58,148 nt of DNA, taken from assembly GCA_964488685.1 (NCBI GenBank), contig CAZAVY010000008.1, positions 1 through 58,148 on the forward strand. Reading direction: 5' to 3'. Below, piece after piece: positions 13,173 through 58,148 of this stretch (the stretch's first letter is position 1; each line of letters starts with the position of its first letter). The notes under the pieces were generated by a model. It saw only the letters and a list, made by a program, of their open reading frames with translations, searched no databases and was not told the DNA's origin. Made by a program: the position numbers and the translations under genes. Source of the stretch: an uncultured Gammaproteobacteria bacterium. Its GTDB lineage: Bacteria; Pseudomonadota; Gammaproteobacteria; GCA-001735895.

Positions 13173-14462
13173 TTACGAGCGTAGGTTTCCGTCACCGAAA
13201 ACGACATACTTCTGGGATGTCAAACCTTGCAGGCCAACGGGGCCGCGCGCATGCAATTTATCGGTACTGATGCCAATTTCGGCACCCAACCCGTACTCGA
13301 AACCATCGGCAAATGCGGTCGACACATTGACCATGACTGAACTCGAATCCACACGCCGTAAAAATTCCCGGGTATTGCCGTAATCTTCGCTGACAATCGC
13401 ATCGGTGTGCTGTGAACCGTAGTGATCGATATGCTCGATTGCCTGTTCCAGACCATCGACGATACGGATCGACAGGATCGGAGCGAGGTACTCGGCATAC
13501 CAGTCGTCTTCGCCGGCGGCCTTGATGATTATATTGTCGAATTGACGGCTGCGTTCACAACCGCGTAATTCGACTCCGCTGGCCGACATGCGTTGGATTA
13601 TCTCCGGCATTACACTGGCCGCGATCTTGTCCGCGACCAGCAGTGTTTCCATCGCATTACAAACACCGTAGCGCCTGGTCTTGGCATTCAGCGCTATTTC
13701 GATCGCTTTTACCCGATCCGCATGATCGTCGATGTATACGTGGCAAACACCGTCAAGATGCTTGATTACGGGTATTTTTGATTCGGCGGCAATCCGTTCG
13801 ATCAGGGCTTTGCCGCCCCGCGGAATGATGACGTCGATGCAATCCTGCATTTTCAGCATCTGTCCCACCGCTTCGCGATCGGTGGTATTGATAACCTGGA
13901 CCGCGGCTTCGATCAAACCAGCCTGCCTCAAACCTTGCCGGATGCATTGATAAATCGCCTGGTTGGAATGCAGCGCTTCCTTGCCACCCCTCAAAATACT
14001 GGCGTTTCCGGATTTAAGGCATAACGCAGCCGCATCGATAGTCACATTAGGACGCGACTCGTAAATAATACCGATGACACCCAGCGGCACCCGCATCTTA
14101 CCAACCTGAATGCCGGAAGGTCTGTAACGCAACCCACTGATCTCCCCAATCGGATCAGCCAGACCCGCCACCTGTTGCAAACCTTCAATCATTGCATCGA
14201 TACGACGCGGGTCCAGCTCCAGGCGTTCGAGCATCGCAGCGCTGATCTGATTTTTATCAGCAGCATCGAGATCCTTGCTATTTTCCTGCAAAATGAAGTC
14301 GCGGCGTTGATCCAGAACGGCGGAAATCTCGAGTAACGCCTGATTTTTATGTTGCGGTCGAGCATATGCCAAGGTCGCAGCCGCCTCTCGCGCAAACTGC
14401 CCGAGCGCCATCATATACTGACACAAATCGGTTCCGTATTCTTTTTGTAGTGCAACGCTCAT
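13173..14462 (-). CDS. proA: Gamma-glutamyl phosphate reductase
   Basis: [45 protein letters not shown]. Confidence 0.98.
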
Positions 14463-15475
14463 AATCTATTACCCGTATCAGCACTGAAGCCGGCAACCAG
14501 CGATCTAACCTCGAACCAGTCCTGGTCGGGGAAATCACTGTCCTGCTGCCCTTTTCCCAGCCGGTCTAATGTAGCACAGCTTTGTAACAAACGCTCAATC
14601 TGTGATGTGCCCAATCGAGCTAATGCAGACTGATAAAGCCTTTGCTTATTACGCCAGATACGCAGTTCCTGCCAGATTCGATCGGCAATGGCACCGTTAC
14701 GCTGTACCTGTTTGAGCCGATCGAGTTGTTCCAGTGAAACCTGTATCGCCCAACGCAATTGTGGCGTCGCATACCCTTCCGCTTCGAGACTGCCCAGTAT
14801 CCTGAGCGCACGGCCGGTGTTGCCGGCGAGACAGGCATCGACCAGTAAAAAATGACTGTAACGTGCCGACTGTGCGACCGAGGCTTCGATGGTTTCAAAA
14901 TCGACCGTTTCCCGGTCGCCGAATCTTATCGAAAGTTTCTCCAGCTCCTGGTCCGCCGCCAGCAGGTTACCTTCGGTGCGTTCCGCCAGGAACTGCGCCG
15001 ACTGAGGGTCGATTAGCAGCCCTTTCAACTTCGCGCGTTCTACCAACCAGCCTGCCACCTGGTTGGGGTAAATCGGTTTCAGCTCGACTATCTCACCCGC
15101 CGCCTGAATCGCTTTGCACCAAGCCGAATTCCTGGTTTGCCGATCGAGGCTTGACGCTACGATGATGTACACATTGCCATCGGCCGGATTTTCACACAGG
15201 TTCTGGATGACCTTGCTACCCGGTTGCCCGGGCTTACCGCCGGGCATGATCACGATGCGACATTTTAGATCTGAGAATAACGACATCATATCGCCCTCTT
15301 CCAGCAACTCTTGCCAGTCGAACCCGATATCGCTCTGAAACGTCAAAATATCTTCGAATCCGGCTGCGCGTAGCGCAGTCCGCGCCTCGTCGAGCCAGTC
15401 CCGGGTTAACAACAGCTCGGCACTGGCGAGCAGATAAACGGGTTTGAGATTTTGTGTAATCCGGGATCCTCGCAT
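14459..15475 (-). CDS. holA: DNA polymerase III subunit delta
   Basis: [28 protein letters not shown]; length and context typical. Confidence 0.92.
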
Positions 15476-15591
15476 GGCGCGAATGTTATCACACTACCCG
15501 TGTCACCCGGTCATCCCTGCGCATGCCGATACCTCGGAAGGACGGGATTGTGGTTATTTACCGAACAGGATACTGATGCCGACCCTGAATT

Positions 15592-15624
15592 AAAAAGGTC
15601 CCCGGCCGGGGAGGCGCGAGGACC
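15592..15624 (-). terminator. Rho-independent terminator
   Basis: Minus strand GGTCCTCG-cGCC-tcccc-GGC-CGGGGACC GC-rich hairpin followed by TTTTT. Confidence 0.7.
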
Positions 15625-15763
15625 CCAAGATTGACTGCTTTCTTCATCCAACGGCATCCAGCAAGGCTTCCTGCCTTTGATGCGTGGGACCAAATCCTAC
15701 GACATCTCCGTTACCCGATTCCTTTCAAGCACGAGTACAAGTCTACTCGCAGAGATGCTCCAG
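15592..15763 (-). ncRNA. Putative CsrB/RsmXYZ-type CsrA/RsmA-sequestering sRNA (~170 nt)
   Basis: Seven GGA motifs between a putative TSS and terminator, one as AAGGC-AGGAA-GCCTT hairpin loop; further hairpins CGAGTA..TACTCG and GCATC..GATGC; upstream GacA-type box; 5' end estimated. Confidence 0.6.
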
Positions 15764-15810
15764 CCCTAGCTTGTACGGCGGTTCCGTTTGTAGTCTCGGG
15801 CGCCAGTTTA

Positions 15811-15828
15811 TGTAAGATTTGTCCTACA
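15811..15828. promoter_or_regulatory. GacA/UvrY-type binding palindrome
   Basis: TGTAAGATTTGTCCTACA, one mismatch to TGTAAG-N6-CTTACA, about 50-65 nt upstream of the GGA-rich RNA on the minus strand. Confidence 0.65.
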
Positions 15829-15832
15829 ACAA

Positions 15833-17044
15833 TCAGATGTCACGCAAACCGTCAGAAGGTTCGATACCGGCAGCACGCACACCACCCAGAATAGCCGCTA
15901 AAATTGCTATCCCGACTGTCAACCCCAGGGCCCACAGAAAATGCTCGGGGAGCAGGAAACACAGGGCTCGATCAAGATTGAGTCGGGGAACCATGAAAAA
16001 ATTAATCAGGTATTCGAACGCAAGATAGACCAGTACCGCGAGCAGCCAACCGAGCAATGCGGTATAAAAGGACTGCAGTACCGGATACATAACGATGCGC
16101 CCGCTCTTGAAACCGATCAATCTCAATACACTGAGATCCCTGCGCTTGCGATCGACGTTTGCCAACAGGCTGGCGCCCAGGGAGAAAGAGAATCCGATCG
16201 CGCCGACACAGGCAATAATCCAGAATAGTACCGACAGGTTTTGATCGATAGATTGTACGGTGTTGATTTCGGCGATATTCGCCTTGATACGCACGCCTTC
16301 CGCTTCGAGATCACTGACCAGGTTTTCGACATCATAGATCGAACCTGCATAGAGTCGAAACGACGGATATATCCGGGCCGCCATTTCGTCACTGTTACCG
16401 CCCCAGCCGAGCGCCGCAACCGCGCGTCCGTCCTTGAATTGCTCACTCGCGACCAGCAGATCCAGATTGACAAAAGCGACGTTGCGCGAAGTGACCGCGG
16501 CATCGGCGATAGCGATGACATTGAGCGGCAGGTGTACCCGTTCGCGTTTGCCCTGGTACTGTCGGGCAAGGCTGGCGTCGATTTCATCATTAACCTGGAC
16601 ATTCAGCTTTTTTGCCGCTGCCCAACTCAGAATAACCTGATTATAGTTCGCCGGAACCGGAGTCGATTCGATAAGAATGGGATCGCCCGCCGCGGTTGCA
16701 AGTAATTCGGTAGACAGGATACGTTTGGCTGTTTTGCTATTGAGTTGAATAGTGGCTGCCAGCGCACGGGTTTTCGGGATAATAAATTCAACATCGCCAC
16801 GTTGACGAAATCGGTCGATCCAGCTGTCATCGTAACGACCACTGCCGATTGGCCTGATTTCCCGGTTCGCTGGATTTTCAACCAATTGGTGAATCATGCT
16901 GCTGACAATGCCAAACTTGAGACCGAACAGAATCATCATCGGCGCCAGTACCGAGGAAAGGGCCAGGATGAAACAGCCTGACATCCGCCATTCGTGGCTA
17001 TAATCACGGAAGCTAAGGCGGATAATGTTAGTGATTTGTACCAT
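15833..17044 (-). CDS. ABC permease (FtsX/MacB-type), TagS-like
   Basis: N-terminus RDYSHEW...VLAPMMILFGLKFG...NPANREI resembles P. aeruginosa TagS; C-terminal FtsX domain RKRRDLSVLRLIG, AAGIEPSDGLR. Confidence 0.85.
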   Translation of the reverse strand: MVQITNIIRLSFRDYSHEWRMSGCFILALSSVLAPMMILFGLKFGIVSSMIHQLVENPANREIRPIGSGRYDDSWIDRFRQRGDVEFIIPKTRALAATIQLNSKTAKRILSTELLATAAGDPILIESTPVPANYNQVILSWAAAKKLNVQVNDEIDASLARQYQGKRERVHLPLNVIAIADAAVTSRNVAFVNLDLLVASEQFKDGRAVAALGWGGNSDEMAARIYPSFRLYAGSIYDVENLVSDLEAEGVRIKANIAEINTVQSIDQNLSVLFWIIACVGAIGFSFSLGASLLANVDRKRRDLSVLRLIGFKSGRIVMYPVLQSFYTALLGWLLAVLVYLAFEYLINFFMVPRLNLDRALCFLLPEHFLWALGLTVGIAILAAILGGVRAAGIEPSDGLRDI

Positions 17045-57127: not shown

Positions 57128-58102
57128 TCAAACTTTCAGGAAGCGATCCACTTGTCGTGGTGGTCGTCCCAAGCTTTTTTGTCTTTTGCGACCATATGCA
57201 TCAACGTTCATTGCTCCCCAAGACACCAACCACCATGCCTTCACAAAGATATGGACGATATCACAAGTTGGCCGGGCACGATGTGGGTATGTGTGACTGT
57301 CCATCACCAGTTGATAAGCCTGCTCGACTATATTACTCCAGATTTCCTTGTCACGCAGTTTTTCAAGAACATCAACCAGGTTCGAGAAATCCGGATTCAA
57401 TGAAATATAGTGTTCCCCAGGTTTTAAAATATTATTGAACCGACCAGGAAACATTATCTGGCAAGTTTTTATACCGATTGCAACGAAATTACGCGATGAA
57501 ATAGCTTTCGAGTGAGCGGGGCACTTCCTAGCCGTTTTGAGAAAATGCTGATACACCTCGTCAAAATCGAGTTTTTCATACTCAAATATATCATATTTGA
57601 ACGGACCATTCTTCAAAATCGACATGAGCGGCGATTTGACCGATGCAGGTAGATAGCGCACCAGACGGCGCAACGGATTGTCTTCGCCATGTCGATGCCG
57701 CTGCGCTGCTGCCAGGCGAAGGCATAAAACTGTTTCACCAGATCATCGTCTGAACGCAGATACCAACTGCCGGTTTCCGTTGACAATACCACCTTGCAAT
57801 CACCCAGAAAACCAGCCCAGTCTGCGGGAATGAAACGCTTGGTTTTGCTTATGTCGAGCCTTAGCCCAAGCTCCGGGCCATGTTCGACAAAATAGTCGAT
57901 AATACGGTTGCGGTCGTTATCTCCAAGATAGGGCGGATAGCGATAGCTGCGCATCCCCACATCAATGGAAGGTTTGTCATAGTCTTTGCCCGGATGAAAT
58001 AGATCAGGATTCAGGGGATGGGGGATGGGGGATGGAGACGATCTTTGCCCCGCTGTCACCATAAATATAGCGCCCCAAGTATAGACGATATAGACGCCCC
58101 AT
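57128..58102 (-). pseudogene. Frameshifted glycosyltransferase-like gene (CgeB/Glyco_trans_1_2-like)
   Basis: Consecutive overlapping frames join into one plausible protein; breaks at the 58014-58034 heptamer repeat and near 57690; SKAISSRNF..TCQIMFPGRF motif. Confidence 0.6.
58014..58034. repeat. Tandem heptamer (GGGGATG)x3
   Basis: Read directly; lies at a reading-frame break. Confidence 0.9.
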
Positions 58103-58148
58103 CCTTACCTGAACCGAAGGCTACCATCTAAGATGGATACCTCAAAGT

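Follow-up and report, generated by a model that had tools for sequence, protein, structure and literature searches.

Within the 58,148-nt stretch of DNA analysed here (the window), the 357-nt spacer (15476..15832) between a gene for an FtsX-type ABC permease and holA houses a small-RNA gene on the minus strand. Judged from sequence comparison, this gene is quite probably transcribed independently into an RNA of ~140 nt belonging to the RsmX/Y/Z-CsrB functional class. An Rsm-type small RNA had been suggested here in a first-pass annotation, and a conserved box, a conserved -10 hexamer, a covarying structure, GGA motifs and a terminator (Table 1) now support it. Because of the chance statistics of the box and of the GGA motifs (given below), features of the single sequence were suggestive only; decisive was the conservation of every element in relatives.

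Table 1. Features of the small-RNA locus and its flanking genes, in window coordinates
Feature	Position	Strand	Basis and remarks
ABC permease gene, FtsX-type, 403 aa	15833..17044	minus	ORF list; stop codon included at the low end (15833)
GacA/UvrY-type palindrome, TGTAGGACAAATCTTACA	15811..15828	minus	Pattern search and family conservation; plus strand reads TGTAAGATTTGTCCTACA
Third half-site-like element, ACTACA (family NYTAC[A/G])	15789..15794	minus	Resembles a half-site of the GacA box
Weak -35-like hexamer, TAGGGC	15763..15768	minus	Read from the sequence; 17 nt upstream of the -10
-10 hexamer, TAGACT	15740..15745	minus	Aligned to family TATAAT
Modelled small RNA	15591..15734	minus	Alignment A1 (30 sequences) and covariance model R1
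SL1, GGA-1 in loop	15713..15730	minus	5/5 pairs with changes on both sides
GGA-1, SL1 loop, AAGGAA	15722..15720	minus	GGA kept in 27/30
GGA-2, unpaired linker ACGGAGAUG (A-N-GGAGAUG)	15709..15707	minus	GGA kept in 29/30, always as A-N-GGA
SL2, closing stem GAUGU/GCAUC, variable top carrying GGA-3	15679..15706	minus	3/5 closing pairs change on both sides; 96.5% of cells paired
GGA-3, variable top of SL2	15697..15695	minus	25/30 with a GGA in the interior
SL3, AAGGC-AGGAA-GCCUU, GGA-4 in loop	15663..15677	minus	RNAalifold; 2/5 pairs change on both sides; 95.3% of cells paired
GGA-4, SL3 loop	15671..15669	minus	GGA kept in 28/30
Mini-hairpin GC-UGGAU-GC with GGA-5	15654..15662	minus	2-bp stem invariant in A1
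GGA-5, mini-hairpin	15659..15657	minus	GGA kept in 29/30
GGA-6, UUGGAUGAA, pairing unsupported	15649..15647	minus	GGA kept in 19/30
Conserved block AAGCAGUCAAUCUU (family AAGCAGGUAAUCUUU)	15627..15640	minus	Nearly invariant in A1; immediately 5' of the terminator
Intrinsic terminator, GC stem of at least 8 bp and U run	15592..15624	minus	Terminator scan; 6/8 pairs change on both sides
Extended -10 of holA, TGATAACAT	15483-15491	minus	holA ATG at 15475; no intervening Shine-Dalgarno sequence
holA	14459..15475	minus	TIGR01128, 227 bits; start at 15475

The locus and its gene neighbourhood

The intergenic placement beside holA given in the first-pass annotation was confirmed, with the permease gene on the other side of the spacer. 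That gene had been called "tagS-like"; the ABC permease stood, but the tagS specificity did not, the resemblance reaching to the FtsX/LolCE-type level and no further. Between 12197 and 23800 the minus strand carries, in order, leuS, genes for a 196-aa protein, a 651-aa protein, an ABC ATPase and the FtsX permease, the small RNA, holA, proA, nadD, rsfS, rlmH, maf, rng, yhdP and tldD/pmbA. The 196-aa protein, at the customary position of lptE, gave no family match, and the 651-aa protein upstream of the ABC ATPase gave a weak VWA match. The order VWA-like protein, ABC ATPase, FtsX permease, RNA, holA, proA was kept across the relatives that carry the RNA, and the block with the VWA/ABC genes and the RNA lies within the usual leuS-lptE-holA-nadD cluster.

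Two observations concern the neighbourhood as such. The VWA/ABC operon and the small RNA together resemble an insert in the common leuS-lptE-holA cluster, and more distant relatives (L039-L079) have holA-proA without either of them. In addition, the holA mRNA of this clade seems to have no leader: an extended -10 of the form TGnTA[G/A]CAT is conserved, ends 7-8 nt before the ATG and is equally placed in L001-L016, L023, L033, L035 and L037, while the more distant L017-L020 and L024 have TAGCAT ~24-30 nt upstream instead.

Conservation of the small RNA among relatives

Species-representative genomes were scanned with the holA protein, and 79 loci were obtained. All of them came from metagenome-assembled genomes (MAGs) of uncultured Gammaproteobacteria from marine sediments; some MAG names suggest possible animal hosts. 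The holA of the closest relative was 79% identical to that of the window, those of RNA-bearing relatives were 58-79% identical, and the spacer showed 70-86% nucleotide identity in ~27 loci. A sequence profile detected one homologue each in 29 loci and in the window (30 genome loci), and 33 further homologues came from metagenome contigs scanned with an exact pattern; all of them were recovered by R1. The small RNA was thus conserved in ~60 loci, always between the permease gene and holA and with one per locus, and no paralogues were found in the window or the loci by the profile or R1 searches. Conservation of the box and of the GGAs in relatives had been set in advance as a check on the proposal, and both were strongly kept in these ~60 loci.

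An apparent tandem second copy in L086 (6699-6805) does not differ from copy 1, abuts the holA promoter motif at a contig end and is most likely an assembly artefact.

A GacA-type palindrome upstream of the RNA

The palindrome lies where it had first been noticed, 4 nt past the permease stop, and was the sole match to the box within 58 kb. On the minus strand it reads TGTAGG-N6-CTTACA, the right half-site being canonical. With one mismatch allowed, 0.30 matches to the box pattern are expected per window, and 26 of 100 shuffles contained at least one, so the box alone was weak evidence.

The family was more informative. TGTARG-N6-CYTACA, with at most two further mismatches, was present in 52/52 unique promoters (those with enough upstream sequence). 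The left half-site was TGTAGG in 45 of them and TGTAAG in 4, the right half-site CCTACA in 36 and CTTACA in 8, and the four central bases varied freely, giving a family consensus of TGTAGGa-N4-TCcTACA. The distance from the box start to position 1 of the RNA model was 94 nt (range 92-96) in the same promoters. Half-sites that are kept around a free spacer pointed to the binding of a dimeric protein to the DNA and away from a hairpin in the RNA; read as RNA, the box of L010 (TGTAAG...CCTACA) would have an A-C mismatch.

CRP-type sites have the form TGT-N10-ACA, and in lux-box-type sites the half-sites abut. Both readings of the palindrome were ruled out by the half-site spacing. The published GacA site is TGTAAG-N6-CTTACA (PMC4950607; examples in PMC4353343) and is found in P. 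aeruginosa at -75 of rsmY and -196 of rsmZ (PMC4950607). Its TGT-N12-ACA spacing is identical in the family box, but the family consensus has G in place of A at position 5 of each half, and this departure from the canonical box at one symmetric position was counted against reading the RNA as an Rsm sponge. The claim of an upstream GacA-type box was supported by the conservation of the palindrome in the family, by its spacing and by the one canonical half in the window.

The third half-site-like element follows the right half-site of the box after 22 bp, or two turns of the helix, and was found at +34/+35 from the box start in 52/52 promoters.

Core promoter and likely transcription start

In the 30 aligned sequences the -10 hexamer was TATAAT in 20 and TATACT in 5, the rest having other one- or two-base variants. 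The -35-like element, (A/G)TAGGG, was kept solely in closer relatives. A consensus promoter scan left the -10 TAGACT uncalled because of the poor -35, which, we infer, is what an activator-dependent promoter would show. TACAAG, put forward earlier as the candidate -10, is present on the minus strand (15775..15770), but it aligns with non-conserved sequence 25-30 nt upstream of the family -10 and was ruled out in that role.

Going by the spacing from the -10, the RNA is likely to start near G15732, and its 3' end is likely to fall in the U run 15596..15592, for a total of ~140 nt. The transcript length of ~170 nt proposed earlier was revised to ~140 nt, since the conserved -10 puts the likely start near 15732.

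Secondary structure of the RNA

The alignment A1 was made with MAFFT from 30 sequences and was fitted to no structure. The structure tested on it comprised SL1, SL2, SL3, the mini-hairpin with its 2-bp stem, the terminator and a further hairpin, the fifth, proposed for the surroundings of GGA-6. In A1, 92.7% of cells were paired, compared with 31-47% when the 3' partners were slid by 1-3 columns, and 16 of the 28 pairs showed changes on both sides. The covariation score was 0.338 against 0.045-0.136 for the slid partners, and none of 500 shuffles scored as high. RNAalifold, unaided, returned SL1, SL3 and the terminator, and the covariance model R1 gave the window copy 127 bits. The AGGAA loop on a 5-bp stem that had been seen in the first reading was recovered as SL3. 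The fifth hairpin, with zero covariation, was dropped. The strand was fixed as minus because G-U pairs are frequent and the T run is present on that strand only.

Single-sequence folds of the window RNA buried some of the GGAs, and its stability was ordinary (z = -1.28), which was counted against an Rsm sponge; such folds also varied between homologues. Given this ordinary stability, the case for the structure is a comparative one. Also counted against an Rsm sponge were the extra half-site and the conserved non-GGA block AAGCAGGUAAUCUUU, which such a model leaves unexplained.

A small ORF at GGAGAUG was rejected: it is not conserved, and its reading frame closes 2 codons past the AUG in the window and at once (0 codons) in L011.

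GGA motifs

Seven GGA motifs had been claimed, and seven were counted on the minus strand within the 144-nt modelled RNA (15734..15591). Its body holds six of them and the stem of its terminator the seventh; CTGGAG, an eighth, shortly precedes the RNA and is not part of it. Among 144-nt segments of the two strands, which average 1.87 GGA, 0.28% had at least 7, and this density was reached at seven further places. In the family, GGA-1, -2, -4 and -5 were kept in 27-29 of the 30 sequences, the RNA body held ~6 GGA on average, and the conserved islands of the RNA were the GGA motifs. Burial of the GGAs in stems had been named beforehand as an argument against the proposal; the comparative structure puts the conserved ones in hairpin loops or unpaired linkers. 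The strict AGGA/ARGGA form was seen in 3 of the 6 body GGAs of the window, which was counted against an Rsm sponge.

The only other spot in the window with 8 GGA per 144 nt was 57889-58110, where a GGGGAT-type simple repeat, GGGGATGGGGGATGGGGGATGGAG (58000-58045, plus strand), explains at least part of the count.

Comparison with known RNA families

At the gathering score, the Rfam models RsmY, PrrB_RsmZ, rsmX, CsrB and CsrC gave zero matches in the window. At E<=10 the Csr/Rsm models gave zero matches in 15400-15950 and in ten homologue loci, which was counted against an Rsm sponge, and Rfam searches of the small RNA at this threshold returned only chance matches to eukaryotic lncRNA and miRNA families. 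As had been foreseen, the gene was missed by standard annotation, and neither this nor Rfam has the small RNA. The lack of a Csr/Rsm match indicated a new sequence family within the RsmX/Y/Z functional class.

Kulkarni et al. (2006; PMC1488887) define CsrA-regulating small RNAs by five sequence features, and all of these were found at this locus: a position between genes, a high density of GGA, a Rho-independent terminator, GGA that is looped or unpaired, and an upstream site that is conserved. For the placement of the GGAs, GGA-1 and GGA-4 are in the loops of hairpins with covarying stems, GGA-2 is in a linker, and GGA-5 and GGA-6 are without supported pairing.

RsmY, RsmZ and RsmX of Pseudomonas (RF00195, RF00166 and RF02144) are in the same size class (~110-140 nt) and likewise have multiple GGA in hairpin loops and linkers, an intrinsic terminator and an 18-bp palindromic site tens of bp upstream (-75 for rsmY, PMC4950607; ~-86 here). 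They differ from the small RNA in showing no detectable sequence or structure homology to it (E<=10). Here the box is TGTAGG-N6-CCTACA with an extra NYTACA half-site 22 bp downstream, the context is that of FtsX permease and holA genes in an uncultured marine gammaproteobacterial clade, and CsrA binding is only proposed. CsrB and CsrC of Enterobacterales and Vibrio (RF00018 and RF00084) share the proposed mechanism and the type of upstream UvrY site, but they are much longer (~250-420 nt), have many more sites (21 predicted in V. fischeri CsrB1/2; PMC1488887) and lack covariance-model homology to the small RNA.

AYGGAY-like loops are shared with TwoAYGGAY (RF01731), the SL1 loop being AUGGAU in 9 of 30 small-RNA family members, but the TwoAYGGAY model was unmatched by the small RNA itself. 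In TwoAYGGAY two motifs are carried on one long, nearly palindromic hairpin, and to our knowledge it has no promoter box.

A TwoAYGGAY match (RF01731, clan CL00106) was seen in a subclade between the small-RNA terminator and holA, namely at L014:866-988 (minus strand, 47.1 bits, above the gathering score of 43) and L112:5290-5427 (plus strand, 35.6 bits). In these loci it gives the small RNA a neighbour whose hairpin loops also contain GGA. The window lacks it, and an inverted-repeat insertion occupies this place in L107 and L086.

The partner genes were searched for by tblastn with E. coli CsrA and P. aeruginosa RsmA and GacA in the window and 112 loci. Neither csrA nor gacA nor gacS turned up in the window or in the ~0.85 Mb of sequence from related loci, an absence that says little because all the sequence searched consists of holA neighbourhoods.

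A real and conserved small RNA could also serve another purpose than that of a GacA-controlled CsrA sponge. Its box would then be recognized by another LuxR/NarL-type or an unrelated dimeric regulator, and the RNA would base-pair, for example via the AAGCAGGUAAUCUUU block, or bind a different protein. Zero Rfam Csr/Rsm matches, a consensus half-site of TGTAGGA and not the canonical TGTAAG, and the nearly invariant non-GGA block and third half-site, for which a sponge gives no account, are consistent with such an RNA. We consider it unlikely, since the conserved islands are precisely GGA motifs in loop or linker positions, the half-sites are spaced as in GacA boxes and unlike those of CRP-type or lux-box-type sites, and a canonical TGTAAG or CTTACA occurs in some members as well as in one half of the window's box.

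Terminator, probable operon end and loss of the RNA

The GC hairpin with a T run reported in the first-pass annotation was found by the terminator scan. The terminator is unidirectional, as the plus strand has no T run. No terminator was found between the permease stop and the box, so that of the RNA probably doubles as the end of the ABC operon, and read-through from the operon may add to the RNA pool.

The RNA was missing in four relatives. In L004 (3870-4003) a box remnant, TGTAGGAGCAGTCCTGCA, and the terminator were kept and the RNA body was gone; in L027 (3766-4003) the sequence had decayed and the box had degenerated to TGTAGG-N6-CCCACA; in L025 and L032 the spacers, at just 15 and 78 nt, were without the small RNA. 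These losses indicated that the RNA is a separable, dispensable module.

With the box so close to the permease stop, no terminator between them and the RNA invariably downstream of the permease, the element might be no more than the 3' UTR of the VWA/ABC-transporter operon together with its terminator, the palindrome being incidental or operon-related. This is very improbable: a functionless tail would have lost the -10 and its constant spacing to a palindrome, three covarying internal hairpins and invariant GGA triplets were kept where holA is 58% identical, and relatives without the RNA body retain the operon and holA. A cis-acting leader or attenuator controlling holA, suggested by an element on the same strand that lies upstream of holA and ends in a terminator, is scarcely credible, as the distance from terminator to holA varies from ~45 to ~400 nt among relatives with unrelated insertions, holA has its own conserved extended -10 placed 7-8 nt before its ATG, and holA persists where the RNA is deleted.

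Proposed mechanism and significance

For the favoured Rsm-type RNA the following course of events is proposed. A GacA/UvrY-type response regulator would bind the 18-bp palindrome, centred ~86 bp upstream of the start, and activate a sigma-70 promoter whose -10 is good and whose -35 is poor. The RNA would display five or six GGA, two of them in the loops of hairpins with covarying stems and the others in linker or unsupported-pairing stretches, and would end at the strong intrinsic terminator. Several CsrA/RsmA dimers would bind the GGA sites and be titrated off their mRNA targets, and CsrA-repressed genes would be released while the two-component system is active. In this scheme the protein at the box would be a GacA orthologue and the RNA would be a ligand of CsrA.

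A rewired Gac/Rsm circuit, with a response regulator shifted in specificity to TGTAGGA-N4-TCCTACA, the third half-site, a terminator that insulates holA and a base-pairing block, is a distinctly doubtful extension of this proposal. If it were true, the third, phased half-site would suggest higher-order binding, and the RNA would be embedded at the 3' end of the VWA/ABC operon directly before a leaderless holA. The terminator would serve the operon as its end and the replication gene behind it as an insulator, and through the conserved non-GGA block the RNA would act by base pairing as well.

Because of their fast evolution, Csr/Rsm sponge RNAs escape homology searches beyond the well-studied genera, which leaves most uncultured lineages without an annotated Gac/Csr output RNA. 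The mechanism proposed here is ordinary for Gammaproteobacteria and reveals none that is new; the gain is a new, well-defined sequence family for uncultured marine lineages and the box variant. The family provides a ready covariance model, with ~60 sequences, a covariation-supported structure and a defined promoter, for a widespread clade of marine-sediment Gammaproteobacteria. This model would permit the annotation of genomes and the reading of Gac activity in metatranscriptomes, and the box offers a natural variant of the GacA site for studying the co-evolution of a regulator and its site.
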